Below are positions 18,642 to 63,147 of a stretch of DNA of 64,000 bases, piece after piece (positions within the stretch are counted from its first letter, which is position 1; each line of letters opens with the position of its first letter). The position numbers and the translations under genes are program-made. A model generated the notes under the pieces. The model was not told the origin of the DNA and made no database searches. It saw only the letters and a program-made list of their open reading frames with translations. The stretch is from Elusimicrobiota bacterium (GTDB lineage: Bacteria; Elusimicrobiota; Elusimicrobia; UBA1565; UBA9628): assembly GCA_041662295.1 (NCBI GenBank), contig JBAZSR010000002.1, positions 2,130-66,129 on the forward strand, written 5' to 3'.

Positions 18642-19736
18642 TCATTGATATAGCCTTGATGTTGCATTCTGCCTCAGCCTGTCATAAATTGCGCCCCAAT
18701 GCATCATGCTTTCGTTGGCCTTCGCCCACCATGCGGCCGTCATCTTAGTCCTAGGCCGATAGTGAAGTCGGGCAATGCCAATCAAAACCACCTCCGTCAT
18801 ATGTCTGAGCACTGGGAGCAGAATGGGCTCACAATCGAGTTCTTCCCTAGCCCAGTCGAGCTGCCCCGGCGTAACCATTCTGACGGCGGCCTCCTGGGCC
18901 TTGGTTCCCAACTTGTTTTCAATGTCCTCTCCCTGGCCGCAACCGACTGAATGGATTATTTCTGCTTCCGGCTTGTCTGACTCGTACAGGTGGGGAATCC
19001 ACTTCAATATCCCAAGGTCCCGCAACTGACCCAACCGTCTAAAAGCATCTGTTGCTTTCGACTCTCCCCCCGCCTTCTCCTCCTCAGTCAAGGTTGCTCG
19101 ATAATGAGGTTCTAGCGAACCACTACACGACACCCATTCCCGAGGATTTCCAAACCCCCAGACAACATAAGGCCCCTGCTGCCCAACCCGAACCCGCTCG
19201 AATACCTCCCAAGCCAGACTCCGTCTGATTCCGCCGGAATCGGGGAGAAATTGCTCATGGTAGAGGTCAACAAATAGTCGGAGGGTCATTACATCCTGAC
19301 ACTGCCGGACCCGTTCCAATGGGGAATCCTCGCCGTTGGCCCCCACCACAAGGGAATTCGGGAGAAAGACCAACCCGGCCTCTGGAGTCGGTTTGCTTCG
19401 CAAACTATAGAGGGGGCGAGTCCCTTCCTTGTCCTTTGTGATTAGCCTGGCCTTTATGAGCTTGCCTATGGCATCCTTGGCTCGCATCCGGCTGATTCGC
19501 GTGTATGTCTCAATGGCATGAGTGCTTGCCCTTGTAACATCGTTCAGCCTCCCACTGAAACTCGCCATCACCATATAGGCCACGGCAGGGTTGAGACCTA
19601 GGGTGCAGACGCGTTCCCAATGCTTGCCGTCTATGGCAAAGAAATGCCCCACCCCGCAGCTAGACTCTGGGGCCCCACACGGAGCCAACGCAGGCACGGC
19701 ACCCACTATTCCCCTCGCATATTCTCCCGGGGTCAT
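18642..19736 (-). CDS. Hypothetical protein with putative winged-helix segment (replication/regulatory candidate)
   Basis: 364 aa. The segment RASTHAIETYTRISRMRAKDAIGKLIKARLITK looks like a winged helix. Its start overlaps the upstream gene's stop by 4 bp, consistent with an operon. Confidence 0.4.
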   Translation of the reverse strand: MTPGEYARGIVGAVPALAPCGAPESSCGVGHFFAIDGKHWERVCTLGLNPAVAYMVMASFSGRLNDVTRASTHAIETYTRISRMRAKDAIGKLIKARLITKDKEGTRPLYSLRSKPTPEAGLVFLPNSLVVGANGEDSPLERVRQCQDVMTLRLFVDLYHEQFLPDSGGIRRSLAWEVFERVRVGQQGPYVVWGFGNPREWVSCSGSLEPHYRATLTEEEKAGGESKATDAFRRLGQLRDLGILKWIPHLYESDKPEAEIIHSVGCGQGEDIENKLGTKAQEAAVRMVTPGQLDWAREELDCEPILLPVLRHMTEVVLIGIARLHYRPRTKMTAAWWAKANESMMHWGAIYDRLRQNATSRLYQ

Positions 19737-20071
19737 GGCTGCACCCCCTCAAATAGGCCAGGCTGAGCCGACTCAGCCTTATGCCACAACCTCAGAGGCA
19801 AGGCTATTTGCGGCTCGTATCCCGCATAGTGAATGGGCCTGCCCTCTTGTCTAATTCGCCCCAAACTCGCAGAATAGGAAATGCCCGAATCCTTATCGGT
19901 CAGCAGGACTTCGATTACGCCTTGTTTCTGTGCCGCATCTAGTTGAGGAACGCTGAGTGCCCAGGAAGGTTCTGGATATCTCAACTGGTTCTTACTTCGG
20001 ACTGATTTGACCAGCCGCGCCCCGACGATACGTCCAGGAATCTTTTTCGGGTTGAAGGGGGTAGCACTCAT
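19733..20071 (-). CDS. Hypothetical protein (112 aa)
   Basis: 4-bp overlaps at both ends, consistent with an operon. Confidence 0.35.
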   Translation of the reverse strand: MSATPFNPKKIPGRIVGARLVKSVRSKNQLRYPEPSWALSVPQLDAAQKQGVIEVLLTDKDSGISYSASLGRIRQEGRPIHYAGYEPQIALPLRLWHKAESAQPGLFEGVQP

Positions 20072-20289
20072 ACTTTCCCTCCCTTCGATTCTGCCAATAC
20101 CTGATACACCCGGCGTGGCGTGATTCCGAGCAGGCTAGAGAGTTGATTGGCCGTCTTCCCTGCGGCGTGAAGGCGAAGGAGTTTTGCTTTGTCAATTCTG
20201 TCCCGCTTCGGAACATAGATTATTCGCCCTCCAGCCCTAGCCCTCAGCCTCGCCAAACACCTTTTGCATACGCAATCCATCAATGCCAT
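20068..20289 (-). CDS. Small HTH DNA-binding regulator (Mor-like)
   Basis: 73 aa. YVPKRDRIDKAKLLRLHAAGKTANQLSSLLGITPRRVYQVL. First gene of the minus-strand operon. Confidence 0.5.
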   Translation of the reverse strand: MALMDCVCKRCLARLRARAGGRIIYVPKRDRIDKAKLLRLHAAGKTANQLSSLLGITPRRVYQVLAESKGGKV

Positions 20290-20858
20290 ATATAACCTCC
20301 CAGGAAATAAAAATGGCCCGTCAATAGTTAGAACAACTCGTCGGAGCCTAGGTATACCTAGACCCTAACGGCTTTTCTTTCCTATCGACAAGCCTGGGTG
20401 GTTATCCGATGGACCGTCCGTATTGGGTTATCGGACTGAATTGTGCGGCCCCTTTCGGGGTTGTCCCACATCCAGCCCGGCCCACGGACTTCTTCGGGCC
20501 AACAGCACTTGCTTCATGTTCCTACACCATCCGCACATTGGGCCCTTGCGGGTTATCCTAGGGCGAAGCATGAACACGATGCCCCAATAACGGAGGGGCC
20601 TCCCGTTTGTGTCATCAACTCAAAGAACAGGGGAAACCTTCAATCAATTATACCAGTTCAACTTGCCTTACCACTGAAAAACCGCCGGGAAATCCTTTGA
20701 CCAGTTCTTCACCCCATGCAACAAACTATGCCAGCCGGAACCTCTCCCTCCCCTTTAGCTAAGCCCCTATGCAGTCCAACGACGAGCCTTACCGATGTCC
20801 CTAAAAAGCACCGTCAATTGCTTGACCCCTTTGAGGAACAAGTAATAGACTCATCCTG

Positions 20859-21248
20859 ATGACCAAATTAAATGCTACGCGTGGATTTCTTTTGGCTCTA
20901 GCCCTGGCACCCCTCGGCGGGTGCGCCACAACACCCAAGAGTAGCCCAGGCAATCTTACCCACGGCGGGGTCCAACTCTTTCTCAAGAAAGGCGTAACCA
21001 CGCAAGCAGAGGTCCTTGAGAAATTTGGTGCCCCAAACATCGCTACGGTTGATGGTGCGGGGCATGAAGTCTGGACCTACCAAAAGCACGCCTCTGTTTC
21101 CCATGAGTCTTCTGGGTATGCGACGATTGTCCTGTTTGGAGGGTCTTCCAGCGGTTTTGAACAATCGTCCCGCACGATGACATTGATTATTAAATTTAAC
21201 GACACAAAGGTCGTTTCAGATTTCAGCAGCATGTACTCTAGCTTCTAG
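20859..21248 (+). CDS. Lipoprotein (unknown function)
   Basis: Lipobox LGGC. 129 aa. AT-richer than the surroundings. Confidence 0.5.
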   Translation: MTKLNATRGFLLALALAPLGGCATTPKSSPGNLTHGGVQLFLKKGVTTQAEVLEKFGAPNIATVDGAGHEVWTYQKHASVSHESSGYATIVLFGGSSSGFEQSSRTMTLIIKFNDTKVVSDFSSMYSSF

Positions 21249-21256
21249 GAGCATTT

Positions 21257-21709
21257 ATGAAAAAATTCATTGCAGTACTCCTACTTGCAATTTTGTCTGG
21301 CTGTGCATCGGCTCCAAAATTGACCTCGCTTGAGTTGCAGGCGATTCAGAAACGACAATATGATTCATCGAAACAGATTGTTTTCGCATCCGCAATGTCG
21401 GTCTTTCAGGACCTGGGCTACACCATCAAGAGCGCGGATATACAAACTGGACTGATTCAAGCTCAGAGCCCGACGGAAAGCACCGTATTTTTCGGGTCCT
21501 ACATGAGCAATGTTGAGGCAACCGCTTTTGTTGAAGAACTATCACCCGCCAAATCAAGCATCCGCTTAAACTTTGTTCAGGTAAATGAATCCTCCTCTGG
21601 ATATGGAATGAAGTCCAAGTCGGACACCCCCATCGTGGACTCCAAGGTTTACCAAAACGCTTTCACAAAGATTCAAGAAGCGATTTTCATTCGCACGAAT
21701 ACTCAGTAA
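21257..21709 (+). CDS. Lipoprotein (unknown function)
   Basis: Lipobox LSGC. 150 aa. AT-rich codon usage. Confidence 0.55.
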   Translation: MKKFIAVLLLAILSGCASAPKLTSLELQAIQKRQYDSSKQIVFASAMSVFQDLGYTIKSADIQTGLIQAQSPTESTVFFGSYMSNVEATAFVEELSPAKSSIRLNFVQVNESSSGYGMKSKSDTPIVDSKVYQNAFTKIQEAIFIRTNTQ

Positions 21710-21741
21710 CCCCTCCCCCCTGACTAGCCTTCCCTAAAAAG

Positions 21742-22719
21742 CTAATCCAACCTGACTCGCTTCCTCTCGCCAGGGAGAGGCCCCATCTTATCCAATGGGC
21801 TAGCTCGACGGTGTTCTGTCAAAGCATCATCGTCGGTCATGTTGACATAGTTCCTCACCATGTCGAGGGAGGAATGCCCCAAGAGCTTTTGCAAGGCCAT
21901 GATGTCCCCCCCATTCCTGAGGAATTGGAGAGCAAAGAAGTGCCTCAACGCATGGGGAGAGAGCCTATCAGCGGCAATCCCTACCGTCCTGGTGTAGCGT
22001 TTCATCCTGTGGGCGAAGTGTGTCCGTTTCAGCGTCCTTCCAAAACGGTCAATCCATAGGCTATCGCATCCCTCGACGGTGCCCCTCTTTCGCATCCAGA
22101 GCATGAGGGCATGACGGGCAGTGCTCCCGAAGGCAATCCGGCGCTCCTTCCCTCCTTTCCCCATAACCGCGATGGTGTTGCTTCCCCAATCAATCTCGGA
22201 GAGCTTCACGGAAAGGGCCTCGCTGATTCTCAGCCCTGTATCGGCCAGAAACAGTATTAGGGAATGGTCCCGAAGGCCGAGAGCTTTGCCTGTGTCAATC
22301 ACTTCGAGGATACGCCTCAATTCCTCGACGGTGATAGGCTTTAGGAATCTCCGCTCCCGCCTGGGATGTTCTACCTTTTCCATCGGGTCGAGGATTATCA
22401 GCCCGTCCCGGTGTAGGAAGTGCCAGAAGGTTCTGAGTATCTTGAAGATACAGGCTACCGTCGTGGGTTTGTTGCCTCTCTCCTTACAGTGGTCGAGGAA
22501 GGCCCTCAGGTGTGGGGATTGAATCTCACCGGGCGAAAGGTTGCCATTCTCTGCTACCCAAGCCCGGAACAATCTCAACCGGACAGCATAGAGGTCGATA
22601 GTCGGCTGAGAAAGATTGAGGCTCTTGCACCGCAAGAGAAACATCCTCGCGGCAGTGTCCCAATTGAGGGTTTGCGGGGTAATGCTTGCGATATTCAACC
22701 TGTCCATGTGCTCCTCCAA
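21742..22719 (-). CDS. Tyrosine-type site-specific integrase/recombinase
   Basis: N-terminal core-binding (SAM-like) domain. The catalytic R...HALRH...LLGHSSLDMVRNY motifs with the Tyr nucleophile. 325 aa. Confidence 0.85.
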   Translation of the reverse strand: MEEHMDRLNIASITPQTLNWDTAARMFLLRCKSLNLSQPTIDLYAVRLRLFRAWVAENGNLSPGEIQSPHLRAFLDHCKERGNKPTTVACIFKILRTFWHFLHRDGLIILDPMEKVEHPRRERRFLKPITVEELRRILEVIDTGKALGLRDHSLILFLADTGLRISEALSVKLSEIDWGSNTIAVMGKGGKERRIAFGSTARHALMLWMRKRGTVEGCDSLWIDRFGRTLKRTHFAHRMKRYTRTVGIAADRLSPHALRHFFALQFLRNGGDIMALQKLLGHSSLDMVRNYVNMTDDDALTEHRRASPLDKMGPLPGERKRVRLD

Positions 22720-22823
22720 AACAGGTCGAGTATAGTGCTGTCATGGGCCCCAAAAGGCCCAGAAAAAGCACCTTCCAGACTTTACGCTAGGTGGGTTCTC
22801 CGACGGAGAGGACAGCGAGGAAT

Positions 22824-22895
22824 GGGCAGTATAGGATTTGAACCTATGACCCCTGTCGTGTGAGGACAGTGCTCTACCGCTGAGCTAACTGCCCG
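22824..22895 (-). tRNA. tRNA-Val (anticodon CAC), copy b
   Basis: Identical to copy a over the whole gene plus the GGC 5' flank. Confidence 0.9.
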
Positions 22896-22949
22896 GCAGA
22901 GGATATTCTACAACACTTTTCCGCTGGCCCCCAACCCGCACTAGGAAAG

Positions 22950-23405
22950 TCATGCCGGACCGGAGGAACAGCGCCGGTAGAGGCCGTTCTTGCGGACCAT
23001 CAGCTTGTTGATGATGAATTCGCGGCGCAGGGTGCAGACGTCCTCGTGGAACCGGCGGAGGGTGTCGTTGACCTCGGCTTCGGTGTAGACCCTCCCTTGA
23101 AGGAAATTCGAGGCCAGCCGCTCGAGGACGAGGAGGCGCTTGCCCCGCTTGGCCGGGATGCTGACGAGCCTCCCGTCCGCGCTGAAAAAACTCTGGAGTA
23201 CGCGGTCCTGATCGCTGAGCCGGTTCGAATGCCGCTCAAGCCACTCGCGCACCGAGGCCTCCTCGACCCGCCAGTCCTTGCCGAGCTTGTACGCCTTGAT
23301 CTCCCCGCTTTGGAGCTTGCGCAGCACGACCTGAGTGTTCATCCGGAGGATCTCGGCCACTTCCGCGGCTGTCAGCAGCTTGAGGTCTCTGATCTCGCTC
23401 TTCAT
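22950..23405 (-). CDS. DNA-binding protein: excisionase/MerR-type HTH plus DUF2087-like C-terminal domain
   Basis: The N-terminus LLTAAEVAEILRMNTQVVLRKLQSGEIKAYKLGKDWRV matches excisionase/MerR-type HTHs. 151 aa. Confidence 0.5.
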   Translation of the reverse strand: MKSEIRDLKLLTAAEVAEILRMNTQVVLRKLQSGEIKAYKLGKDWRVEEASVREWLERHSNRLSDQDRVLQSFFSADGRLVSIPAKRGKRLLVLERLASNFLQGRVYTEAEVNDTLRRFHEDVCTLRREFIINKLMVRKNGLYRRCSSGPA

Positions 23406-37762: not shown

Positions 37763-38668
37763 ACCTCTCGCGCTTAAAGCGCCTGCTCGTCGGACGCGGG
37801 TCGCCGACCCAGGCCGCCTTCCTGGCCCTCGCACGGCTCGGCCAAGTCCGCTTCGAGTCGTGCCTCGCCGTGGACGGCCACCGGCTCCACGCCCGGACCT
37901 CGGACCGGGCCCTGGCGCTCCTCCTGCACCGCCTGGGCCTGGCGGACACGGCCGAGAAGCGCTGGCTCTCCGAGAACGCGCGCCCCGGCATGACCTGCCT
38001 CGACATCGGCGCCAACATCGGGATCTACACGCTCTATCTCGCGCGCCTGGCCGGACCCGCGGGCCGTGTCGTGGCCTTCGAGCCCGAGCCCGAGAACTTC
38101 GACCTCCTCGAGAAGAACGTCATCGCCAACGGCTACGGCAACGTCGAATGCGTCCGCAAGGCGGTCAGCGACCGCGCCGGGACCGCGGACCTCGGCTTCT
38201 GCGAGGAGAACCGCGGAGACCACCGGCTGGGCGGCCAGGGCCGGAGCACGGTCGCGGTGGAGACCCTGCGGCTCGACGACTATTTCCCCCCGGCCAGCAG
38301 GGTCGACGTCATCAAGATGGACATCCAGGGCTCCGAGCTTGGCGCCATGGAAGGCATGCGCCGCCTGCTCCGGGACAACCCGGGCGTCCAGATCGTGGCC
38401 GAGTTCTGCCCCTCCCTCATCGAGGCCGCGGGCGGCTCGGCCGAGGCCTTCCCCGCGTTCTGGAGGGCCGAGGGCTTCAAAGCCTTCCTGCTCAGCGAGG
38501 GCCTGCGGCCCGTCTCGCTCGAGGACGCGTCCTCCTTCATGGACATGGGCCGGAACCAGGGCTACCTCAACGTCCTGCTCCGCAGGCTCCGGGACTGAGC
38601 TCAACGACGCCGTCTCTCCCCGCCTGCGAACGGGTACAATATCAGGATCCGGTCCCTGGAGGAACGTC

Positions 38669-41512
38669 ATGTCCTACCGCTTGAAGAAGTCCGCCGCCTC
38701 CACCCTCTCGAGCCTGCTCGCCTTGCTGCTCCTCCTCCAGCCGCTGGCCGCCGCCGTGCCCCAGCGCATCCTCTACCAGGGGACCCTGCGCCAGACCGGC
38801 GGCCTCTACACCGGCAGCGCCGCCTTCCTCTTCCGCATCACCGACTCCTCCGGCGGGGTCGAGTACTGGAGCTCGGGCTCCACCGTGGTGGCCGTGACCG
38901 CCGGGCTCTTCCGCTACCCCCTGGGCGCGGACAACCCCGGCACCGGAGGGGTCGACGAATCAGCCTCCTTCCTCACCATCGACTGGTCCAACATCGCCCC
39001 CTACGTCGAGGTCACGGTCAACGGGGATCTCCTCTCCCCCCGCGAGGAGATCCACTCCGTCCCCTACGCCATCTTCAACTCCGCTGCGACCGACATGGTC
39101 AACCCCCGGGTGCTCCGCGCCGGAGACGCCATGACCGGCCAGCTCACCATCGCGGGCTCCACCCTCACGGTCACGGGCAGCGCCTTCTCGGTCGGAGGCT
39201 CGACCCTCGCGGTCAAGGACGGCAGGCTGGGGATCGGCGTCACCGCGCCCCAGACGCCGCTCCATATCGAGAACAACGGCGCCAGCCTCGTCAAACTGGT
39301 CAACACCGCCGTGACCGCCAACGGCTGGGGCATCCGGCATCTCGCCGGCAACATCCTCGCCGTCACCGACAACCAGAGCGCGTCCGACCGGATGTACTTC
39401 GACGGCTCCGGCAACGTCGGCATCGGCCCCGTGTCCGCGCCGCTGAGCAGGCTCCACGTCCTCAACGGCGACATCCGCGTCTCGACGGAAGCGGGCCAGC
39501 CCTCCCGGGGAGTCATCTTCCAGGATGGCACCACCCTGCTCACCGCAGGAGGCGCCAATGCCTGGGCCATGGTGGACGCCTCCTCGGTCGCCAGCGCGGT
39601 CGCGGGCAACGTCGGGATCGGCACCACTCACCCGGACGTCAAGCTCCACGTGGCCGGCAACATGCACGTCGACACCTCCGGAACCTCGTCTTTGACCCGC
39701 AACGTGACCTTCAAGAGCGGGGGCTCCGCCCTGGACTGGGCCTCCTACGGCGGAGGCTGGGCCCCGGGCCTCATGCTCCAGGGCTCGACCCCGGCAGGCG
39801 CGGACAGCGCCTCGGAGTTCCTCTTCCTCTCGGCCTTGGACGACACGCAGGCAGCGCTCATCGCCTCGGGCAAGGACCTCGAGATCTACACCGGCGCGCC
39901 CCTGGGCTCTTCGGGCAGCAGGTCCCTCTACCTCGGGGGCACGGGCAACCTCTTCCTCGGCGTGGACGCCGGCAGGGTTCACGCGGCGGCCAACGGCACG
40001 TTCGTCGGCTACCAGGCGGGCTACAACAACACGACCGGGTCCAACAACACGTTCCTCGGCGGCAGGGCCGGACGGGCCGACACCACGGGCAGCGACAACG
40101 TGTCCGTGGGGATGGAGAGCGGCCTCACGAACGCCGCGGGCAACAGCCTCACCCTGCTCGGCTTCCGGGCCGGCTACAGCAACACCGGCAGCAGCAACAC
40201 CTTCGCGGGCTATCTCGCCGGCTACTCCAACACCTCGGGCCGCTACAACGTCTCCGTGGGCAACCGCGCCCTCTACGGCAACTGGACGGGCGACGAGAAC
40301 ACCGCGGTCGGCTATCAGGCAGGCGAGAGCCAGCTCTCCACCGGCGTGACCTTCCTCGGCTACCAGGCGGGCAGGGCCAACACCACGGGCGCGGGCAACA
40401 CCTGCATCGGCAGGTCCGCCTGCCAGGCCAACACGACCACGGACTACGGCACATTCGTGGGCTACAGCGCGGGGATCAGCAACACCGCGAGCTACAACAC
40501 CTTCATCGGCTTCGACGCCGGCTATTCGAACACCTCGGGCGCCAACAACGCCTTCCTCGGCTTCTACTCCGGCTACACCAACTCGGCCGGGACGAGGAAC
40601 ACCTATATCGGGACCTCGGCCGGCTATTCCGCCACCGGGAGCGACAACACGTTCCTCGGCCAAGCCGCGGGCTACAGCACGTCCTCCGGCGGCCAAAACA
40701 CCGTGCTGGGCTCCCAGGCGGGACTCAACCTCGGGACCGGAGCCGGCAACGTGCTCCTGGGGTACATGGCCGGCTACAACGAGACAGGCTCCAACAAGCT
40801 CTACATCGACAACTCCAACACCGCCTCGCCCCTCATCGGGGGCAATTTCAGCACCAACGAGGTCAGCGTCAACGGGGTCCTGGGCGTTGGGACCACGGAC
40901 CCCAACGAGAGCTTCCGGCTCGACGTCCGGGGAACGATCCTCGTCACCGACGCCACGGCTTTCGAGGGCGGCATCATCACCCACTCCGCCAACGGCCTCC
41001 TCCTCTCCGGCGTGGACGCGACCAAGGCGGTCATCCTCGCGATCAACGGCACCGAGAAGGCGCGCCTGCACTCCAGCGGGAGATTCGGGGTTGGGACGGA
41101 TAACCCCAACGACGGCATGGTGGAGGTCAAGGGCGGCTCGGTGTGCGTGGACACGAACTCCGACGACTCCGCGACCTCGTGCGTCGCCAACGAGTCCGAT
41201 GAGAGGCTCAAGCGGGAGATCGAGCCCATCACGGGCGCGGTGGAGAAACTCAAGAGGCTGCGCGGGGTGACTTTCGACTGGCGGTGGGACGAGTTCGAGC
41301 AGGTCCGGCGCTTCAAGGCCCTGCCCCACTCCATGGGCCTCATCGCGCAGGACGTGGAGAAGGTCTTCCCTGCGGCCATGAACGAGGAGATCGGGGTCTA
41401 CAAGTCAGTCAACTACAACGCCCTCGTGGGCGCCCTGGTCGAGGCGGTCAAGGAACAGCAGGCTGAGATCGACTCCCTCCAGGAGAAGGTGCGCCTGCTT
41501 GAGAAGCCCTAA
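38669..41512 (+). CDS. Secreted tail-fibre-like repeat protein with C-terminal peptidase-S74 intramolecular-chaperone autoprocessing domain
   Basis: RBS GGAGG. Signal peptide. More than 20 copies of an about 18-aa repeat, GYxAGxxNTTGxxNTFLG. The C-terminus has SDERLKREIEP...MGLIAQDVEKVFPAAM, a Ser-Lys dyad context of endosialidase-type chaperone domains. The 1148-aa ORF in the track is an upstream-extended artefact. Confidence 0.75.
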   Translation: MSYRLKKSAASTLSSLLALLLLLQPLAAAVPQRILYQGTLRQTGGLYTGSAAFLFRITDSSGGVEYWSSGSTVVAVTAGLFRYPLGADNPGTGGVDESASFLTIDWSNIAPYVEVTVNGDLLSPREEIHSVPYAIFNSAATDMVNPRVLRAGDAMTGQLTIAGSTLTVTGSAFSVGGSTLAVKDGRLGIGVTAPQTPLHIENNGASLVKLVNTAVTANGWGIRHLAGNILAVTDNQSASDRMYFDGSGNVGIGPVSAPLSRLHVLNGDIRVSTEAGQPSRGVIFQDGTTLLTAGGANAWAMVDASSVASAVAGNVGIGTTHPDVKLHVAGNMHVDTSGTSSLTRNVTFKSGGSALDWASYGGGWAPGLMLQGSTPAGADSASEFLFLSALDDTQAALIASGKDLEIYTGAPLGSSGSRSLYLGGTGNLFLGVDAGRVHAAANGTFVGYQAGYNNTTGSNNTFLGGRAGRADTTGSDNVSVGMESGLTNAAGNSLTLLGFRAGYSNTGSSNTFAGYLAGYSNTSGRYNVSVGNRALYGNWTGDENTAVGYQAGESQLSTGVTFLGYQAGRANTTGAGNTCIGRSACQANTTTDYGTFVGYSAGISNTASYNTFIGFDAGYSNTSGANNAFLGFYSGYTNSAGTRNTYIGTSAGYSATGSDNTFLGQAAGYSTSSGGQNTVLGSQAGLNLGTGAGNVLLGYMAGYNETGSNKLYIDNSNTASPLIGGNFSTNEVSVNGVLGVGTTDPNESFRLDVRGTILVTDATAFEGGIITHSANGLLLSGVDATKAVILAINGTEKARLHSSGRFGVGTDNPNDGMVEVKGGSVCVDTNSDDSATSCVANESDERLKREIEPITGAVEKLKRLRGVTFDWRWDEFEQVRRFKALPHSMGLIAQDVEKVFPAAMNEEIGVYKSVNYNALVGALVEAVKEQQAEIDSLQEKVRLLEKP

Positions 41513-54584: not shown

Positions 54585-55028
54585 ATGGAACGGACCCTGA
54601 CCTTCCTTCTTCTTCTGAGCCTAGCCGGTCTCATGCCCCTCGCGCAGGGATGCCGCAACGCTACGACGGTCCCGGAGAAGGAGGATGCCATGGAATGGAA
54701 AGGACAGCACTGCGGCCAGGCCCGACCCTCCAGCCGCGTGGTCAGGACGGCCGAGGAATGGCAGGCGCTCTGGGCCGAAATCGGCCGGCCCGCGCCCGCG
54801 GACCTCGGAGAGCGCTTCGCCGCCGCGGTCTTCCTGGGCAGCCGGCCCACGGGCGGGTTCGGGGTGAGGTTCCACGACCCGATCCAGGAGGGCGGCAGGG
54901 TGAAGGTCCGCTTCGAGACGCTGGTCCCCAAGGGGTTCGTCACCCAGGCCTTCACCGAGCCCTACGCCGTGCGGCTCTACCCCAAGACCGGCCTCCCGGT
55001 CGACCTCCTGGAGGCGTCCGCGCCGTGA
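54585..55028 (+). CDS. Lipoprotein of unknown function (possibly PrcB-like)
   Basis: MERTLTFLLLLSLAGLMPLAQGC lipobox. About 147 aa. Confidence 0.45.
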   Translation: MERTLTFLLLLSLAGLMPLAQGCRNATTVPEKEDAMEWKGQHCGQARPSSRVVRTAEEWQALWAEIGRPAPADLGERFAAAVFLGSRPTGGFGVRFHDPIQEGGRVKVRFETLVPKGFVTQAFTEPYAVRLYPKTGLPVDLLEASAP

Positions 55029-55783
55029 ATGCGGCCCTGCCGCGGCTCGGCAGGCTCCTCCTGGCGGCCCTGCTGCTGGCCGCCTCGGCGGCCGCTGCGG
55101 AGCGGGAAGCCCCCGCGCCCGCCGGGGACCCCTCCGGCCGCTGGTCGAAGCAGGGCTCCTCCCTCGTCCTCTACGATTCCTCCGGCACCATCGTCAGCGA
55201 GATCCCCCTGAGCCGCTCCGAGAACCCCTCTTCGGCCGGCGTCGCGGTGAGCCGGACCGAGGGAGGGGCGTCCGCCGACGGCCGCTTCGCCTGGACCTTC
55301 GAGAAGAACACGGTCTGGAACGCCTCCAAGACGGTCCGCCGCCGCGAGGACCGGGTCCTGCGCTACTACGGCACGAGCGGCATGGAGCTCTGGAGCCTGC
55401 CGGGCGCGGACGCTCCGCCGCACGGCGACCCCGTCGCGCTGAGCAGTTCCGGCGAGACCGTGGTCGTCGGGGTCCTGAAGAAGGACGGCTCGTGGACGGC
55501 CGCGGCGCGGACCTTCGTGGGCACCACGGTCTGGGAGACCGAGGCCAAGGGCCTGCTCTCCCTCTCCCTGACCCCGGAGGGCCGCTACGCTCTCATCCGG
55601 TGGTCCGAGCTGGACACGAGCGCGACCCACTCCTTCGTGGAGCTCGCCACGGGCAACCGCAAGGACATCCCCTCGGACGAGTTCATCCTCGGCGCGGCCC
55701 GCTTCGACGACGACGGCAAGGTCTTCTCCGGCTCCCGGCTCCTCCACGACTTCAAGAAGGCCGCCGCGCCGGACCAGCCATGA
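55025..55783 (+). CDS. Secreted hypothetical protein
   Basis: GTG start overlapping the upstream stop. Signal peptide LGRLLLAALLLAASAAAA. 252 aa. Confidence 0.45.
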   Translation: MNAALPRLGRLLLAALLLAASAAAAEREAPAPAGDPSGRWSKQGSSLVLYDSSGTIVSEIPLSRSENPSSAGVAVSRTEGGASADGRFAWTFEKNTVWNASKTVRRREDRVLRYYGTSGMELWSLPGADAPPHGDPVALSSSGETVVVGVLKKDGSWTAAARTFVGTTVWETEAKGLLSLSLTPEGRYALIRWSELDTSATHSFVELATGNRKDIPSDEFILGAARFDDDGKVFSGSRLLHDFKKAAAPDQP

Positions 55784-57360
55784 GGGCGGCGCCGGCCCTC
55801 CTGCTCCTGCTTGGAGCGCTGTCCCTGCTCGGCTTCGGGCTTGCGTCGGCGCAGAACGACCTCGACCTCTCGGAGCACGACCTCCTGATCCAGCGGATGG
55901 AGCGGTCCCTCCGGGAGGACCCCTCCACGGTGGACGCCCTCGCGGACCGCATCAGCCGCTCGTCCTTGGCCGGGCTCCTCACGACCGCCCCGAACCAGGA
56001 CCGGCGCCTCGAGGAGATCAAGGAGTGGATCGGCGCGCACCGGGACCAGGCGGCCCAGATCGCGGTAGGGCTGGCGCGCGACGACGCCGAGGACAACGAC
56101 GCCTTCGAATCGGCGCTCAAGACCAGCCTGCAGAGGAGCAAATCCGCCTTCAAGCTCAGCTCCGAGCTCGACAAGACCATCCTCGGCAAGCTCAAGGAAT
56201 CCAGCGGCGCGACCCGGGCCGCGAAGACCGACGAACTGCTCAAGGACGAGGAGAAGGGCGAGCTCGTCAAGACCCTCTTCGAGGGGGACGGCAGCATGAC
56301 AGGCAAGGTCCTCGGGTTCGGGGACTCCAAGGATTCAGCCCCTCCCGCGGCCTCGGTCATGGCAGGCTCAGGCTTCTTCGACAACCTCAGCGCCGTGAAC
56401 ATGGGCGGCTACTCCCCCCAGCTCCTCGCCATCCAGAGCTCCCTCAACGCGGCCAGAGTGCCGGGGGCCCCGCGGCTCGTCGAGACCGGCCGGCTGGACT
56501 ACGAGACCCTCCACTATCCCTCGTACCAGATGCGCTTCGACTTCCAGAACCTTTCGGCGCGCCTGCGCCGCGACCGGACCCTCGCGCTGGCCCGGCTCCT
56601 TGGCCGGGAACGGAGCCTCTCGCCGGAGGACCTCCGGGACCCGAAGCTCGCGCTCACGCTCGAGCAGGAGGCCGGCGCCCGGCTCCCTCCCGACGCCCGC
56701 TCGGCCAAGCGCGCCAAGCTCCTCGACCGCATCCGCGGCCTGCTCGCCGACTTCTCCGCCGCGGCCGCGGTCAGCCGCGACCCCTCCAAGATCACACGAG
56801 GACTGCTCCAGTCGCTCGGGAGCAGGCAGAAGGAAGCCGGCCGCTGGATCACGATCGCCTCGTTGGAGGAGGAGCTCGCCCTGATCGCGGCCGAGGAGGG
56901 CTTCCTGTCGCAGGGGCTCCTGGCCGCCATCGACGCCTGCCCCGTGCCCGAGGATGCCAAAGCCGCGTACAAGCGGCGGGGACAGGACTACGCCCAGCGC
57001 CTGGCCGCGCTCAAGGCCAACGACGAGGCCGCCATCGCGGGCCTCGAGGCCCCAGGCTGGGAGGCGGGCGTCGCGAAAGTGCAGGCCCTGCTTTCCAAGA
57101 ACGCGGGCCTGCGCAAGAACCTGAGCCGCGACATCCGGGACTACACGGTCGTCCCGAGCCGCCTGGCGGCCACGCTCCGCGTCGTGCCGCGCTGGAGGAG
57201 CATCCTCGAGGGCCTCGTCCTGCGCTTCTTCCCGTCGAGCGGCTACGCCCTCGGCCTGCGCAAGGAGGAGCGGGAGGCCGGACGCTTGCGCGACGTCTTT
57301 CTGAAGATCGCCGCAGGCGACCGTGACGCGGCCCACGAGATCCTGACCGCGGGGTTCTGA
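55780..57360 (+). CDS. Secreted hypothetical protein (526 aa, helical/charged)
   Basis: ATGA overlap with the upstream gene. Signal peptide MRAAPALLLLLGALSLLGFGLASA. Confidence 0.5.
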   Translation: MRAAPALLLLLGALSLLGFGLASAQNDLDLSEHDLLIQRMERSLREDPSTVDALADRISRSSLAGLLTTAPNQDRRLEEIKEWIGAHRDQAAQIAVGLARDDAEDNDAFESALKTSLQRSKSAFKLSSELDKTILGKLKESSGATRAAKTDELLKDEEKGELVKTLFEGDGSMTGKVLGFGDSKDSAPPAASVMAGSGFFDNLSAVNMGGYSPQLLAIQSSLNAARVPGAPRLVETGRLDYETLHYPSYQMRFDFQNLSARLRRDRTLALARLLGRERSLSPEDLRDPKLALTLEQEAGARLPPDARSAKRAKLLDRIRGLLADFSAAAAVSRDPSKITRGLLQSLGSRQKEAGRWITIASLEEELALIAAEEGFLSQGLLAAIDACPVPEDAKAAYKRRGQDYAQRLAALKANDEAAIAGLEAPGWEAGVAKVQALLSKNAGLRKNLSRDIRDYTVVPSRLAATLRVVPRWRSILEGLVLRFFPSSGYALGLRKEEREAGRLRDVFLKIAAGDRDAAHEILTAGF

Positions 57361-57375
57361 GCCCTCCGGCCGCCC

Positions 57376-58074
57376 CTACCTCGGCGGAACGACGCAGTAG
57401 CCCCGGCCCGACACAGCCGTCAGCCACCGGTCCGACCGCCACCCGAGCTTGAGCCGGATGCGCCGGACGTGCACGTCCACGGTCCGGAGCGCGCCCTCGG
57501 ACGGAGGGTCCATGCCCCAGACCTTTTTATAGAGCTCCACACGGTCCTCCGGCTCCGGACTGCGGCACGCCAGCTCGTAGAGGAGGCTGAACTCCTTGGG
57601 GGTCAGATGCGGGTAGTCCTTCCCCTTGAGGAAGACCGTCTTGCGGCCGTAGTCGAGCCGCAGGTCTCCGACGGAAACCTCGGGGGGGTGCTCGGCCTCG
57701 GGCCGGGAGCGACGCAGGAGCGCCCGGCAGTAGGCCAGGAGGCGCGCGCCCTTCACCGGCTTGGTCAGGTAGTCGTCGGCCCCCATGTCGAGGCAGGCCA
57801 CGTCCTGGCCCTCCCGGTCGTTGCCGGTCAGGATGAGGACCGGGATGCTCGCGCTGCGCTGGTCCTGCTTGAGCCGCTGACAGACCTCGACGCCGCCGAT
57901 GCCCGGCAGGACGAGATCCAGGATGATGAGGTCCGGATGCTCCTCGAGAGCCTTGGCCGCGCCGGCCTTGCCCGTAGCGGCTTCGAGGACCGCATAGCCT
58001 TCGCGGGTCAGGACGTCCGACACGGCCTTCCTGAACCCGGCGTCATCCTCGATGAGCAGGACCCTTTGAGCCAT
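57376..58074 (-). CDS. OmpR-family response regulator
   Basis: REC domain (LLIEDD...DLIILDLVLPG) and winged-helix Trans_reg_C (LTPKEFSLLYELA). Confidence 0.9.
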   Translation of the reverse strand: MAQRVLLIEDDAGFRKAVSDVLTREGYAVLEAATGKAGAAKALEEHPDLIILDLVLPGIGGVEVCQRLKQDQRSASIPVLILTGNDREGQDVACLDMGADDYLTKPVKGARLLAYCRALLRRSRPEAEHPPEVSVGDLRLDYGRKTVFLKGKDYPHLTPKEFSLLYELACRSPEPEDRVELYKKVWGMDPPSEGALRTVDVHVRRIRLKLGWRSDRWLTAVSGRGYCVVPPR

Positions 58075-58100
58075 CGTCGTTATTATATAACCTTACTGGG

Positions 58101-59297
58101 ATGCGGAGCCGATACCTGTTGTTCTTCCGCGCGGTCCTGGCCGAGACCCTGCTCCTGCAGTGCCTCTACGCGCCCAGCGGGGACGGCCCGCCCTGGCGGA
58201 TCTGGGTCCTGCTGGGGCTCTACGTCTTCTTCGGCCTCGCCTTCTTCCTCCTCGAGAAGCGCCTGCCGGCGCTCGGAGCATGGCTGCCGGTGTCCTTCAT
58301 CGTTGACCTGGGCATGACCTCGCTCATCCTCCTGGCGGCAGGGGGCTTCGCCGGCGACTTCCATATCGCCTTCTTCCTGGTCATCCTGAGCACCGCCCTC
58401 ATCGACAGCATGGCCTTCAGCTTCGTGGTCGGAGGCGTGACCTGCGTGGTCTACGCGTCCCTGGCCCTGCCCTCCTTCAAGGACGCCCTGCAGCCCCACC
58501 AGCTGCTGCGCCTCTCCCTGCTCCTGACCACGGCCTTCTTCAGCACCTTCATCGCGGACCACGCCCGCCGCGTCAAGTCGGCCACCGCCCAGGAGTACCA
58601 GGAACGCCTGGCCTGGCTGGAGCGGCTCTCGTTCACGGGCCAGGCCCTCGCCCGCATCCTCCACGAGCTCAAGACCCCCCTGAGCACCATCAGCCTCACG
58701 GCGGAGTCCGCCAAGGAGCTCCTGCGGCAGGGCTCCACCCTGGACTTCGAGACCCGCCTGACCAGCATCGAGGCGGAGGCCGACCGGGCCGCGCAGATCG
58801 TGGCCGGCTACCTCGATTTCGTCCGGCCGACGAAGCTCGCGCTCAAGCCCCTCCCTGTGCAGGAGCCCCTGCGCCAGGCGCTTGCCTCCGCGAAACTGCG
58901 GCTGGAGGACATGGGGATCTCCGTGGCGGAGCGCCTCGGCGAGGAAGCCCTGGTGGAAGGCAGCTGCCGACACCTAGCCCAGCTTTTCACCATCCTCATC
59001 GACAACGCCATCGCGGCCATGCCCCTCGGAGGACGCCTGGAGGTCGAGGTCGGCGTCCGGACCGGGAGGATCGTCGTGTCCATCGCGGACACCGGGGTCG
59101 GGCTCACACCCGAGGAAGCGTCCCTCCTCTTCAAGGACTTCGCCACGACCAGGCCGGAGTCCGGCGGCACGGGCCTCGGCCTGTCCATCGGCCGCTGGAT
59201 CACGCTCCAGCACCGGGGGGACCTCGGCCTCGCCAGCCCGGGACGGGCCAAGGGCGCGGTCGCGACGGTATCCCTGCCCCTGGCCCCGAAAAGTTAA
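58101..59297 (+). CDS. Membrane sensor histidine kinase
   Basis: Four to five TM helices, HisKA (ILHELKTPLSTIS) and HATPase_c (GTGLGLSIGR). Divergent from the response regulator. Confidence 0.85.
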   Translation: MRSRYLLFFRAVLAETLLLQCLYAPSGDGPPWRIWVLLGLYVFFGLAFFLLEKRLPALGAWLPVSFIVDLGMTSLILLAAGGFAGDFHIAFFLVILSTALIDSMAFSFVVGGVTCVVYASLALPSFKDALQPHQLLRLSLLLTTAFFSTFIADHARRVKSATAQEYQERLAWLERLSFTGQALARILHELKTPLSTISLTAESAKELLRQGSTLDFETRLTSIEAEADRAAQIVAGYLDFVRPTKLALKPLPVQEPLRQALASAKLRLEDMGISVAERLGEEALVEGSCRHLAQLFTILIDNAIAAMPLGGRLEVEVGVRTGRIVVSIADTGVGLTPEEASLLFKDFATTRPESGGTGLGLSIGRWITLQHRGDLGLASPGRAKGAVATVSLPLAPKS

Positions 59298-59342
59298 CAG
59301 AAAGTTTGGTGGCCGCTCCCGGGCCCCGGGGTTAAGCTATGA

Positions 59343-61069
59343 GTGATGACCGCCAGGGCTTACCGACGGACGGACGGATCCAGGGGCGCGGTCCAGGCCG
59401 GAGGCCCTGGCCTTCCAACACATTGGAGGGCCAGGTCCCGGGGATCGATCCTCCTCGAGACGGTCCTGGCCATGTTCATCATGACCACGGTCGGGGTCTC
59501 GCTGCTCTCCATGGTCCAGCGGTCCCTGGTGGTGTCCTTCAAGGCCCGCGAGCAGATGACCTGCTCCAGGATGGCGCAGACCGGCTCGGCCAGGGTCAAG
59601 AACATCGACTTCTACTACCTGTTCGCCGCAGATTCGGCCCAGGCGGACCACGGGCTCCAGGCGGCCTACCCCTACCGGACGGTTCTCGACGGGCTCAAGG
59701 CGACGCTGGGCGGCGCGCGGTTCGACCGCTTCCGCATCCAGGTGACCTTCATGCGCCGCGACATCTCGGACTCCAACGGCGACGGTCTGACCTCGGACCT
59801 CGTGCCCTTCCGGGACGACAACGGCGACAGCATCGACGACATCGACTCCAACATCCGCTTCAGGGACCAGAACACGGACGGCGACTTCACGACACCTACG
59901 CGGCCGGAGGCCGCACCGTCGCGGAGCAGCCCGACACGCACATCAAGAAGGTCCAGTTCGACGTCTTCCGCCAGGGCCGGCTGGTCTGCTCCCAGACCGA
60001 GTTCGTGTCCTTGGAGCAGTTCTCGGGGGACTACAACCCCTCGAGCGAGGCCTCCCTCTCCCTGCTGATCTCCACCCCGGCCAACAGCGGCTACCTCTAT
60101 GACCTCGGTACGACGGCCAGACAGCAGTCCTGGAGCCTTCCCATCGCCAAGGCCTACCCCTCGGACATCCCCCGCTACCGGGCCGACGGCATCTCCCCCT
60201 TGACGGTCGAAGGGGAGACCGACCCCCTGGCGAGCGTCAACCTCTACGTCAATGCCAGCGGCATCCTGGCCAGCCCGGCTGCGGACATGGGCGGGGTCTT
60301 CTCCGCGAGCCCCCTCGCGGTCACGCTGGCCCTGGTGGAGGGCACAGACGAACTCCGGGGCCAGGCCTCGAAGGACGGCTACGCCTCGCCCATCGGCCAG
60401 AGGACCGTCATCTACGACCTGCAGGCTCCCTCGGCGTCCTCCCTCTCCCCCGCGTCCGGGGGAACGATCTTCACCCGTTCGCCGTTCGTCGCCGCGGTCC
60501 TGACGGACCCCGGGGCCTCGACCACCACCACGAGCGGCGTCTGCCCCGAAGTCATCACCCTGTTCATCGACGGGGCCGAGGTCCACCACTCCTACGCGGA
60601 CGGGACCGTGGTCTGGGTCGACTCCGTCACGGGCATCTCTCCCGTCCTCTCGACGAAGGCCTACACGGCCGTCGTCGAGTTCGGCGACTACGCTGGCTAC
60701 AAGGCAAGCGCGACCTGGACCTTCACCCTCTCCGTGCCGGACACGGACCACTCCGCGCCCTCGGTCGCGAATAAGACCCCCATCGGCGGCTCGGCCCCGG
60801 CCCTGCCCGAGATCTCGGCCAAGGTCTTCGACAACCAGAGCGGCATCATCCTCTCGAGCATCGTGCTCAAGCTCGACGGCGCGGTGGTGGTGGACGCCTC
60901 GAACATCGCCTCCCACTACGATGCCGCCGGCGAGCGGGTCTTCTACACGCCGTCATCGGCGTTCACCTCCGGCTCAAGCCACACGGTCGAGGTCACGGCC
61001 AGCCACTGGGCCACGGACCCCTCGAACAAGGTCACCACGGTCGAGACATGGGACTTCACGGTCGAATGA
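59343..61069 (+). pseudogene. Prepilin-leader (type IV pilin-like / pseudopilin-like) protein with dockerin-like Ca-binding loops, frameshifted near 59905
   Basis: RG|SILLETVLAMFIMTTVGVSLL pilin-class N-terminus. Loops DSNGDGLTSDLVPF and DDNGDSIDDID. The frame switches from ...QNTDGDFT to (D)TYAAGGRTVAEQPDTHIKKVQFDVF... and continues to 61069. Inserting one nucleotide restores about 575 aa. Confidence 0.6.
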
Positions 61070-61070
61070 T

Positions 61071-61910
61071 ATGAGGTCTGACCCCAGAGGCGGCGTGACG
61101 CTGACGGAGCTCATGCTGGGATTGGCCATCATGGGGATCATGGTGGCGGGCTTCTCCACCATGCTCGGGTTCATCGTCAAGACCACGACCAAGGCCCAGA
61201 CCACGGGCGAGGCGCAGGAGACGGTGCGGCAGACCCTCTCCAGGGTCGAGGATGCGCTCGCCGCCGCCAACCAGGTCACGGTCACCTCCGGGACCTTCAT
61301 CGAATTCATCGCGGACCTCGACCAGAGCCCTTCCTACGACCCCAACGGCGACCTCGACGGCGACGACGTGCCCAACTACCGCGACGGCGACCGCGACGGG
61401 GACGCCGGCCTGCTCCTTCCGGCCGTCAGCCAATGGCAGGCCGGGTACAACCTCAAGGACGACGATGAGGACGGCGACGGCCAAGTCGACGTCCGGCAGC
61501 GGATTTACCTCTCCAGCCGCGCGGTCTACCTGGACATGAGCGTCAACGGCTCGGCCTGGAGCGCCTCACGCCGCAGGGTCCTCGCCGTTGACATCTCCAC
61601 GCTCAACTTCACCTACTGGGGGAACAAAGCCAACACCCTGGGCCGCAACCTCGACCGGGGCAATGACGGCGCCTCGGGCACCGGCGACCAGGGAGAGAAC
61701 GACGGCGTCATCTCGGCGCGCGAGATGGACTGGGTCCAACCCGCGGCCGGCATGGGAGACCGCAGCCGCTTCCTCGACACGACGAACGAACGACGCTATG
61801 TCACCACGGTCCGGATCCACATCGGCTCGGACCGCAACAGGGACGGGACCATCGATTATGCCGTGGAAACCGACGTGTATCCGCCGCTCCTGCCGCTCAA
61901 GAGCAGGTAG
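61071..61910 (+). CDS. Prepilin-leader protein with Asp-rich Ca-binding loops
   Basis: MRSDPRGGVTLTELMLGLAIMGIMVAGF, which fits the G-F/V-T-L-x-E prepilin consensus. DPNGDLDGDDVPNYRDGDRDGD. Confidence 0.65.
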   Translation: MRSDPRGGVTLTELMLGLAIMGIMVAGFSTMLGFIVKTTTKAQTTGEAQETVRQTLSRVEDALAAANQVTVTSGTFIEFIADLDQSPSYDPNGDLDGDDVPNYRDGDRDGDAGLLLPAVSQWQAGYNLKDDDEDGDGQVDVRQRIYLSSRAVYLDMSVNGSAWSASRRRVLAVDISTLNFTYWGNKANTLGRNLDRGNDGASGTGDQGENDGVISAREMDWVQPAAGMGDRSRFLDTTNERRYVTTVRIHIGSDRNRDGTIDYAVETDVYPPLLPLKSR

Positions 61911-61944
61911 AGAGAAGGGGCTCGGCCAACAGGGCAGCGCGCTG

Positions 61945-63147
61945 TTGGCCGCGCTGGCCGTGCTCCTGTTCGCCCTTCCGGTCGCCATCGTCTTCTACAA
62001 GCACTCGGCGCAGACCCTGATCAGCGCCGTGGCTGAGAAGCGCCAGAAGACCGCGGCGTACCTCGCCAACAGCGCGGTCACGGACTACATGCGGCAGTTC
62101 TCTCAGGACGCCTACAACGGCCACTACGACCTGTCCACGCTGAGCAGGCCCGAGACCTTCACCGGCGCCGGGTTCTCCAGCGTGGACTTCGAGGCGGACA
62201 GCGTCAACCGCACGGTCTTCCTGCGCGCCACCGGCACCTACGGCAGCTCGGCCAGGCCCCTGGCCCGCAAGGTCCTCGAGGCCCTCATCCAGTTCGCCTC
62301 GGACCTGGTGCAGTTCGGGGTCATGGTCAACGGCGGCTGGAGCATCAGCTCGAGCAACGTCACCTACTTCGGCGGGTTCTACACCAACGGCAACCTCTCG
62401 ATCACCGGGGCCAACGTCCGCTTCCAGGGAGGGCCGCTGGTGGTGGCCGGCAACGTGGCGGGCAACAACGCGGTCGTCGACGGAGACCTCTACTACAGCG
62501 GGGTGAGCGCCGCGAACATCACCGTGCTCGGCCAGACCTACAACTATATCCCAGCCATCACCTGGCCGACCCTGGACTTCGCCTACTACGACGCCCACTA
62601 CACCTACAAGACCACGGTCAACCGCACCATCGTGTTCAACTCCACGAACACCTTCACCGTGGTGGGCGGGGCGACCTACGGCATCCCTGCCGACGGGGCC
62701 ATCATCTACGGGGAGAACTGCAGCCTGACCGTCCGCGGGGTCGTCAGCGGCCGGGTCACGGTGGTGGCCGGGTCTGCGGCCGCGGGCAATTGCGCCTCGG
62801 CCTCGGGCAGGGTCATCGTAAGCGACGACCTCTACTACGTCGGCGCGAGCTCCATCGCAGCCGGGCCGAACCAGTCCTTCGCGGCCCTGGCGCGCAACTG
62901 CGCCCGGTTCCAGAAGAACGCCGCCAACCTCACGGCCGTGGGCGTCTACTTCGTGCAGGAGGGGACCAACAACATGGAGCTCGCGGGCACCGCGGGATTC
63001 CGGTTCCAGCTCTTCGGGGTCCGCACCCAGATCGTCTCCCCCTCGGGCTTCGCGCCCAACTCCTACACCTACGACCCCAACCTGCGCTCCTACCCCCCTC
63101 CGGGACTGCCTGAGAAGGCCCTCCTCGTCAACTGGAACCTGCGTTAG
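61945..63147 (+). CDS. Degenerate pilin-like N-terminus fused to a predicted parallel beta-helix domain
   Basis: QQGSALLAALAVLLFALPVAIVF. Repetitive GNxSITGANVxF/GNVAGNNAVVDG beta-helix-like strands. The start codon is uncertain: no ATG, TTG at 61945 or GTG at 61960, and an SD-like GAGAAGGGG at 61912. Confidence 0.45.
   Translation: MAALAVLLFALPVAIVFYKHSAQTLISAVAEKRQKTAAYLANSAVTDYMRQFSQDAYNGHYDLSTLSRPETFTGAGFSSVDFEADSVNRTVFLRATGTYGSSARPLARKVLEALIQFASDLVQFGVMVNGGWSISSSNVTYFGGFYTNGNLSITGANVRFQGGPLVVAGNVAGNNAVVDGDLYYSGVSAANITVLGQTYNYIPAITWPTLDFAYYDAHYTYKTTVNRTIVFNSTNTFTVVGGATYGIPADGAIIYGENCSLTVRGVVSGRVTVVAGSAAAGNCASASGRVIVSDDLYYVGASSIAAGPNQSFAALARNCARFQKNAANLTAVGVYFVQEGTNNMELAGTAGFRFQLFGVRTQIVSPSGFAPNSYTYDPNLRSYPPPGLPEKALLVNWNLR

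Follow-up and report, generated by a model that had tools for sequence, protein, structure and literature searches.

Three consecutive genes, here called P1, P2, and P3, were analyzed at positions 59343-63147 (plus strand) of a 64,000-nt stretch of DNA from an Elusimicrobiota bacterium (contig JBAZSR010000002.1 of assembly GCA_041662295.1); the whole stretch is referred to as the window. Their products are probably minor (low-abundance) pilins of a type IV filament, whose assembly they would initiate and whose end they would cap; a type IVa-like pilus is the most probable kind. In the best-supported form of this assignment, the trio is a lineage-specific I-J-K set in which P3 is a ComZ-like cap, P1 a modular subunit that bears a stalk, and P2 a conventional minor pilin rich in calcium-type loops. 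An earlier note on this DNA had recognized three prepilin-type N-termini at this place, and all of the strings it quoted were found there. It had proposed a "pilin-anchored surface or adhesion module", which stands insofar as these are pilin-class proteins whose unusual additional modules suit a role in adhesion or at the surface, but which was too unspecific given that the gene order and features point to an I-J-K tip and priming core. The assignment offers a concrete, testable identity for three protein families of ~80-90 members each at 90% clustering, of which P2 is deposited as prepilin or type II secretion system (T2SS) protein and P1 and P3 mostly as "hypothetical protein".

The three proteins and their predicted folds

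The window has a G+C content of ~68%, and the three genes lie on one strand with a strong third-position GC bias. The junctions are tight, with a gap of 1 nt between P1 and P2 and an overlap of 53 nt, in a different frame, between P2 and P3. The genes and the parts of their products that are discussed below are as follows:

59343-61069, plus strand: P1, start codon GTG at 59343 or ATG at 59346, 575 aa once a 1-base deletion is repaired
59763-59913, plus strand: Asp-rich loops of the P1 head (residues ~141-190), putative Ca2+ sites
60062-61066, plus strand: three tandem immunoglobulin (Ig)-like domains of P1 (residues ~241-575), from an AlphaFold (AF2) model, hidden Markov models (HMMs), and Foldseek
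61071-61910, plus strand: P2, 279 aa
61858 (ATG)-63147, plus strand: P3, 429 aa
62314-63069, plus strand: beta-solenoid of P3 (residues ~153-404), modelled by AF2 as a series of short parallel strands

All three proteins begin with a leader followed by a hydrophobic helix (a slash marks the boundary between the two). The N-terminus of P1 reads RG/SILLETVLAMFIM and that of P2 RGG/VTLTELMLGLAIMGIM, both with Glu at position +5, while P3 reads QQG/SALLAALAVLLF and lacks Glu5. The Gly at −1 and Glu5 are kept in the P1 and P2 families (80 and 89 homologues), and in the broad P3 family the Gly that precedes the hydrophobic helix is conserved at a level of at least 90%. No further prepilin motif was found in the window beyond the trio.

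P2 is the most conventional of the three. It has a short basic leader followed by GG/VTLTELM, it passes the prepilin model TIGR02532 (17.8 bits, cut-off 16.3), and it falls just under PF07963 (20.8 bits, cut-off 21.2). Among its relatives (91 full-length homologues, every one from an Elusimicrobia-type metagenome), the short basic leader is followed by G/[VFT]TLxELM, and TIGR02532 matches 67 of 89 family members. Weak NCBIfam matches in the family were to PpdB (46 members), ComGE (33), ComGF (15), and GspJ (14), which is the J type. When the P2 profile was compared with PDB sequences, solved pilins were matched at the N-terminal helix only.

P1 carries a long basic leader (34 aa) that ends in RG/SILLE; after it come the alpha1 helix, the pilin head, and, in tandem, three Ig-like domains. 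Its family keeps RG/S(I/V)LLETVLA, and the distant members have G/FTLVE or G/FSLVE. N_methyl models matched 11 of 80 members and TIGR02532 matched 4 of 80; weak NCBIfam matches were to ComGE (22 members), PilV (5), and GspI (5), which is the I type. In a profile-profile comparison, the P1 family aligned to the P2 family over leader and helix (probability 96%, E 3.7e-9). The fold of P1 was taken from the AF2 model of P0171, an intact homologue that is 79% identical (predicted local distance difference test, pLDDT, 89.9). This model has a helix of 52 residues (37-88), a pilin head with the Asp-rich loops that extends to residue ~225, and three beta-sandwich domains at 243-360, 366-465, and 476-576. 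Foldseek searches with it returned tandem Ig/cadherin-type adhesins, such as SiiE. In the sequence searches, Big_5 matched the window P1 at E 0.028, and Big_5, Big_13, and Big_6 were matched among family members; the P1 family profile found no relatives of the globular domains among PDB sequences.

P3 has a leader of 26 aa. Its family shares a basic leader and (R)GQ/ALVxAL, continued as ALVxALxxLLFxLP, without Glu5. PilX_N was matched in 7 of 75 relatives (best E 2.1e-5), and in the broad family T2SS_GspK was matched in 5 of 72 members at E of 0.0037 or higher and ComGG in 1, which is weakly the K type. Alignments of the P3 profile to those of P1 or P2 were in register and weak. The AF2 model of P3 (pLDDT 91.8, predicted template-modelling score 0.83) comprises a helix of 56 residues (28-83), a sheet of four strands (100-147), a solenoid (153-404), and one last strand (420-428), and it supports the parallel beta-helix that the earlier note had predicted for this protein. 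The same note had held that the proteins lack ordinary pilin globular domains; the P1 and P3 models contradict this, since both have the pilin helix and sheet, with the modules added on. P1 and P3 therefore fit the definition of modular pilins (PMC9934059), and P0171 has each of the defining parts (class III signal peptide, pilin fold, and added folded domains).

In the Foldseek search against the PDB, the significant matches of P3 were the two chains of ComZ only (6qvi; E 1e-8 and 8e-8, probability 1.00). The next matches had E above 0.5 and included a Caldicellulosiruptor adhesin and the solenoids of ice-binding proteins, and no viral (tailspike) structure was matched significantly. The P3 family and broadened profiles found no relatives of the globular domains among PDB sequences, and the cluster names of distant P3 relatives were uninformative.

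The ATG at 61858 is the sole in-frame ATG upstream of the P3 hydrophobic helix. The start and basic leader of P3 (MPWKPTCIRRSCRSRA) are encoded out of frame within the highly conserved C-terminus of P2 (ETDVYPPLLPLKSR), at 61858-61910. Many homologues use another ATG, formed within GAT-GTC-TAT, which yields a P3 start of "MSIRR...". The overlap is kept in close relatives and absent from distant ones, and its conservation in close relatives suggests translational coupling of P2 and P3.

In both the P1 and the P2 family, few positions are conserved better than the Asp-rich loops. In P1 they read DSNGDG..D, DDNGD..DD.D, and DQN.DGD.YD; their D/N positions are acidic or Asn in 82-100% of 80 homologues, and model confidence there is 84-91. 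The globular part of P2 has four conserved loops, with the motifs YD...D.DGDG.PN.RD.DRD.DA, NLKDDDEDGDG..DV, and D.N.DGK.DY. These loops had been described as dockerin-like. Their presence was borne out and extends across the families, but no dockerin or EF-hand Pfam model matched P1 or P2 at E ≤ 1, so the likeness is a mere DxDxDG-type resemblance and membership in either family was rejected. A few P2 relatives weakly matched Ca-binding proteins (XopAW 8, lanmodulin 1). Ca2+ sites are common in the heads of pilins and pseudopilins, and Ca2+ binding by the DxDxDG-type loops of P1 and P2 is, by analogy, a reasonable inference. The globular parts also differ in charge: the median isoelectric point is 4.5 in P1 and 4.3 in P2 (strongly acidic) and 8.7 in P3, which is basic in 59 of 75 members. 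This split fits electrostatic pairing within a complex, or a polyanionic ligand such as DNA.

Conservation of the trio and its neighbours

In order to assess conservation, one genome per GTDB species was scanned, and 31 loci were found. All but three are labelled Elusimicrobia or Endomicrobia (the others are one Caldiserica and two "bacterium"). The order and strand P1-P2-P3 were constant in every locus where the contig permits, down to 32-34% identity, and likewise on contigs from JGI and ENA. The trio is also present in an Endomicrobia metagenome-assembled genome (MAG; locus L026). Each family had 79-91 matches, whose named sources are nearly all Elusimicrobia MAGs. An exhaustive profile search with P3 returned 285 cluster representatives (50% identity), the remote members of which start with PilX-type N-termini; one remote relative belongs to a trio of 681, 286, and 488 aa beside an extracytoplasmic function (ECF) sigma factor. 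A chimeric misassembly was ruled out, as the same five-gene arrangement occurs in many independent assemblies.

The genes around the trio, which are as the earlier note had described them, are:

55025-55780 and 55780-57357, plus strand: two signal-peptide proteins of 252 and 526 aa, matched by no Pfam or NCBIfam model
57376-58074, minus strand: OmpR/PhoB-family response regulator (Response_reg and Trans_reg_C), divergent from the kinase
58101-59297, plus strand: sensor histidine kinase (HisKA and HATPase_c; Pfam and NCBIfam)
63177 onward, cut by the window end at 64000: radical SAM gene, directly after P3

The response regulator was typed from the precomputed Pfam annotation of the exact product and from NCBIfam; its best NCBIfam matches were PhoB and MtrA, all under the equivalog cut-offs. 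The kinase has an N-terminus of ~160 residues in which a hydropathy scan shows roughly five or six hydrophobic segments, joined by very short loops, and no periplasmic domain. It lies 46 nt upstream of P1 on the same strand, with no terminator-like site between them. A scan of 57-64 kb for promoters and terminators found nothing exceeding the shuffled expectation. The start codons of the response regulator and kinase are 26 nt apart (58074-58101), with the same spacing in locus L002 (GCA_016218545.1, JACRDQ010000029.1), so both promoters must fall within neighbouring coding sequences.

In 14 of the 31 loci, the trio has the divergent pair of response regulator (minus strand) and kinase (plus strand) directly upstream; the remaining loci have a different two-component pair, one downstream, or none detected. 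The two-component system is a conserved neighbour of the trio in one subclade only, and the response regulator is probably a local regulator of the pilin operon.

The other neighbours were rejected as members of the system. The radical SAM gene adjoins the trio in 1 of 31 loci, L004, the closest relative. There it encodes (12121-14136) a generic fusion of 671 aa, with an N-terminal part like radical SAM/SPASM proteins and a C-terminal part like the BioC methyltransferase, under every NCBIfam equivalog cut-off. For the two secreted proteins, PrcB_C, and TldD, synteny is confined to the loci of the two genomes that are closest (L004 and L002/L005). Since adjacency is limited to the closest genomes, neither the radical SAM gene nor the secreted-protein genes belong to the conserved block.

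Two related loci have additional genes. In L002, a gene for a 192-aa protein with STN and Secretin_N domains (5697-6275) lies between the gene for the 526-aa secreted protein and that for the response regulator; it has no counterpart in the window, where these genes are separated by only 18 nt (57357 to 57376). In L003 (JGI Ga0376277_0000332), the two-component system and the orthologous trio have a second, paralogous trio close by on the upstream side (1727-6053). This second trio encodes an 863-aa protein with N_methyl and CarboxypepD_reg domains, a 165-aa protein with N_methyl, and a 409-aa protein without a Pfam match, and it points to several alternative minor-pilin sets in these genomes.

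Elsewhere in the window, a perfect 75-nt direct repeat was found at 17047-17121 and 22823-22897. The copies are 5,776 nt apart, and each is a complete tRNA-Val(CAC) on the minus strand. They bracket a low-GC segment (17122-22822; 0.51-0.55 vs ~0.68) that ends in a tyrosine integrase (21745-22719, minus strand) and resembles a small integrative element that has entered at tRNA-Val. Just outside it are an ORF6N/Rha-like gene (16445-16966) and a DUF2087/helix-turn-helix gene (22953-23405). A gene at 37994-41509 (plus strand), among glycosyltransferase and polysaccharide genes, encodes a 1,172-aa protein whose sole Pfam match is a C-terminal Peptidase_S74 intramolecular-chaperone domain, of the type found on endosialidase or tailspike-like fibres.

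A proposed tip complex and its alternatives

If the three proteins are minor pilins, the hydrophobic N-terminal helix would insert each of them in the inner membrane, and a prepilin peptidase, encoded elsewhere, would cut off the leader behind the conserved Gly. Packed in a staggered bundle, as the linkage of the genes and their tight or overlapping junctions suggest, the three helices could then prime the assembly of the filament and come to lie at its tip. P3, which lacks Glu5 and has a bulky beta-solenoid placed as in ComZ, would be the cap (K-type), with P2 (J-type) and P1 (I-type) beneath it. The exposed effector or adhesion modules would be the solenoid of P3 and, in P1, the three Ig-like domains, and the conserved DxDxDG-type loops may hold Ca2+ and lend stiffness to the pilin heads. 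The operon of this subclade may be co-transcribed with the adjacent kinase and would probably be controlled by this kinase and the OmpR-type regulator.

The weak HMM affinities follow the gene order, with I for P1, J for P2, and K for the P3 relatives. All of them are below the family cut-offs, and as it is chiefly the N-terminal helix that produces the matches, the I/J/K assignment is tentative.

Several further observations weigh against a minor-pilin tip set. The prepilin-HMM test that the earlier note had named was passed by P2 alone: neither P1 nor P3 of the window matched TIGR02532 or PF07963 or reached the threshold of any other prepilin or PilX model. Structure models covered P3 and the P1 homologue P0171, so that the fold evidence for the trio comes from two of its three members. 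The superposition of P3 on ComZ is poor overall (template-modelling (TM) score 0.27-0.34, root-mean-square deviation 12-14 Å), and at the level of sequence 6qvi was matched neither by the P3 family profile or the broadened profile (E ≤ 10) nor by two distant relatives. A Pfam scan of 43 open reading frames of the window, which left a few short ones outside, detected neither a pilus ATPase or platform protein nor a prepilin peptidase or secretin, in agreement with the earlier note. The 8-10 kb flanks of L002, L003, L035/L036, and L037 likewise hold no assembly ATPase, platform, peptidase, secretin, or major pilin. An H-type (GspH/FimU) fourth gene is adjacent in none of the loci examined and may sit elsewhere. 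Finally, P1 is frameshifted in this assembly.

The foremost alternative, which we consider unlikely, is that the trio is the GspI-GspJ-GspK tip of a T2SS pseudopilus, that is, part of a periplasmic export piston rather than the tip of a surface pilus. The source databases use names such as "type II secretion system protein" or "pseudopilin PulG", there are weak matches to the gspI, gspJ, and T2SS_GspK models, and the minor pilins of type IV pili and the pseudopilins of the T2SS are structurally interchangeable classes (PMC5131608). The genes lie outside any gsp operon, however, with no adjoining GspG/H, and a three-Ig stalk of ~335 residues and a solenoid of ~250 residues would be ill-suited to a short periplasmic pseudopilus. 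A stand-alone operon beside a two-component system is instead the minor-pilin pattern of type IVa pili (T4aP), as in fimS-algR/fimU-pilVWXY1E. In addition, the insertion of GspK is alpha-helical, as opposed to the ComZ-type beta-solenoid of P3 (PMC6561018).

The frameshift raises the question of whether P1 is a true pseudogene, in which case the module would be decaying and the set non-functional in this genome. As the earlier note had stated, P1 of the window is split over two frames; one T is missing between 59888 and 59889 (TTC^ACG for TTC TAC G), outside any homopolymer run, which speaks for a genuine lesion. The lesion is shared by the deposited source contig (71,724 nt), in whose JGI record P1 appears just as a C-terminal fragment of 352 aa (P0184). 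The Logan contig L001, from an independent assembly (SRR18595301), nevertheless has the T and is otherwise 100% identical over 3,353 nt (window 57376-60728); its P1 reads uninterrupted through ...DGDFYDTYAAGG.... This contig was reached by an exact-sequence look-up of the response regulator, whereas the same kind of look-up with P2 and two further products returned no record. There are no other lesions, coding-type composition was found in both halves, and the full-length homologues among those listed are all intact (~530-580 aa). Because the independent assembly carries the T and the homologues are intact, an error of assembly or consensus is the likelier explanation, ahead of a pseudogene, and decay of the set appears improbable.

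A still less probable possibility is that the proteins are not filament subunits but bitopic inner-membrane/periplasmic proteins whose pilin-like helix stays uncleaved and serves as a signal anchor, such as the parts of a pilin-mimicking envelope or adhesion complex. Sub-threshold scores of the window P1 and P3 in the prepilin HMMs would be expected from such proteins, as would long leaders (34 aa in P1, 26 aa in P3) and a locus with no pilus machinery nearby; yet many homologues have short leaders of 5-12 aa. One Glu5-less subunit together with two that have Glu5 is moreover the signature of a tip complex (PMC9934059). An uncleaved anchor also leaves aside the conservation of Gly-1 and Glu5 in the P1 and P2 families, where distant P1 members have the canonical G/FTLxE, as well as the pilin-like heads and the ComZ fold of P3.

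The Leu/Ala/Pro-rich "ALPVAIV" in the N-terminus of P3 may loosely resemble TadG-type N-termini. Tad systems are reported in Elusimicrobia (PMC6668835, PMC8809381). That the trio represents pseudopilins of a Tad/Flp-type pilus (TadE/TadF/TadG analogues), the type IV filament most often reported in this group, is very improbable, given that neither the trio nor its families matched TadE/Tad Pfam models at E ≤ 0.01, that P2 matches N-methylation-type prepilin models, and that the weak matches go to Com/Gsp/Pil minor pilins.

For the minor-pilin assignment itself, a more specific function can be imagined. Endomicrobia are reported to have retained comEC, pilD, and orphan pilins, while no route by which DNA would cross their outer membrane is known (PMC8809381). 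The trio might sit at the tip of a competence pilus as a DNA receptor like ComZ and supply this missing step in Elusimicrobia and Endomicrobia, with its expression set by a membrane-embedded kinase that senses the pilin inventory in the manner of PilS. This link to DNA uptake is speculative, and we give it little weight.

Comparison with known systems

The system closest to the trio is that of Thermus thermophilus, in which TTHA1218 (PilA2) is GspI-like, TTHA1219 (PilA3) is GspJ-like, and TTHA1220 is ComZ (PMC5131608), giving the same order of I-like, J-like, and large atypical pilin. ComZ, like P3, is a beta-solenoid grafted on a pilin fold, and the solenoids of ice-binding proteins are weak matches for both; GspK was reported as the closest relative of the ComZ pilin domain and an ice-binding protein as that of its solenoid (PMC6561018). 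The solenoid was argued to fit only at the pilus tip, where ComZ binds PilA2 and DNA (PMC6561018), and the basic character of the P3 family (median isoelectric point 8.7) is compatible with a polyanion ligand such as DNA. Unlike ComZ, P3 is from another phylum, has 429 aa rather than the 507 residues of the 6QVI chain, superposes with a TM score of ~0.3, and shows no detectable sequence similarity. The I-type protein of Thermus is a pilin of ~120 aa, whereas the one described here has 575 aa and three Ig domains, and no H-type or major pilin gene is adjacent here.

With GspI-GspJ-GspK of the T2SS and FimU-PilV-PilW-PilX of T4aP, the trio shares the I-J-K order and a bulky, Glu5-less last subunit. 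As in T4aP, PilX_N is found in some P3 relatives, and the minor-pilin operon stands apart from the machinery and beside a two-component system. Unlike both, the block has no H subunit and no PilY1, and it falls short of the four-gene HIJK set. The insertion of P3 is a beta-solenoid and that of GspK alpha-helical, and in contrast to the known core complexes the I-type subunit is the largest here rather than the smallest.

In Pseudomonas aeruginosa, the minor-pilin operon fimU-pilVWXY1E stands beside, and is controlled by, FimS-AlgR, and PilS senses pilin within the membrane. The kinase upstream of P1 is multi-transmembrane like PilS and FimS, but its regulator is of the OmpR/PhoB type, not NtrC (PilR) or LytTR (AlgR). 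The parallel is one of analogy, not of membership.

Modular pilins of Streptococcus sanguinis were shown to assemble into a tip complex (PMC9934059). PilA-PilB-PilC are also three minor pilins, one of them without Glu5, and bulky modules at the pilin C-terminus, one of them Ig-like, confine the complex to the tip and present adhesive effectors (PMC9934059). The modules there are vWA and lectin domains, in contrast to the three Ig-like domains and the solenoid found here, and S. sanguinis is monoderm; here, unlike in S. sanguinis, the Glu5-less subunit itself bears the large solenoid. The Verru_Chthon cassette proteins A-D (TIGR02596-02600) are likewise a stand-alone prepilin-type cassette in a group rich in uncultivated members. 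A minority of the relatives of P1, P2, and P3 weakly match its proteins B, C, and A, respectively (4, 19, and 3 members; sub-threshold), although that cassette has four genes and not three.

Measured against these systems, the trio would be a known kind of machine with architectural twists that opens no new mechanism. Through it, the range of ComZ-type cap pilins with a beta-solenoid would grow from Thermus to a second phylum, which is uncultivated, and the I-type subunit of the trio, turned into a long Ig-domain stalk, would support the concept of tip complexes as platforms for interchangeable effectors.

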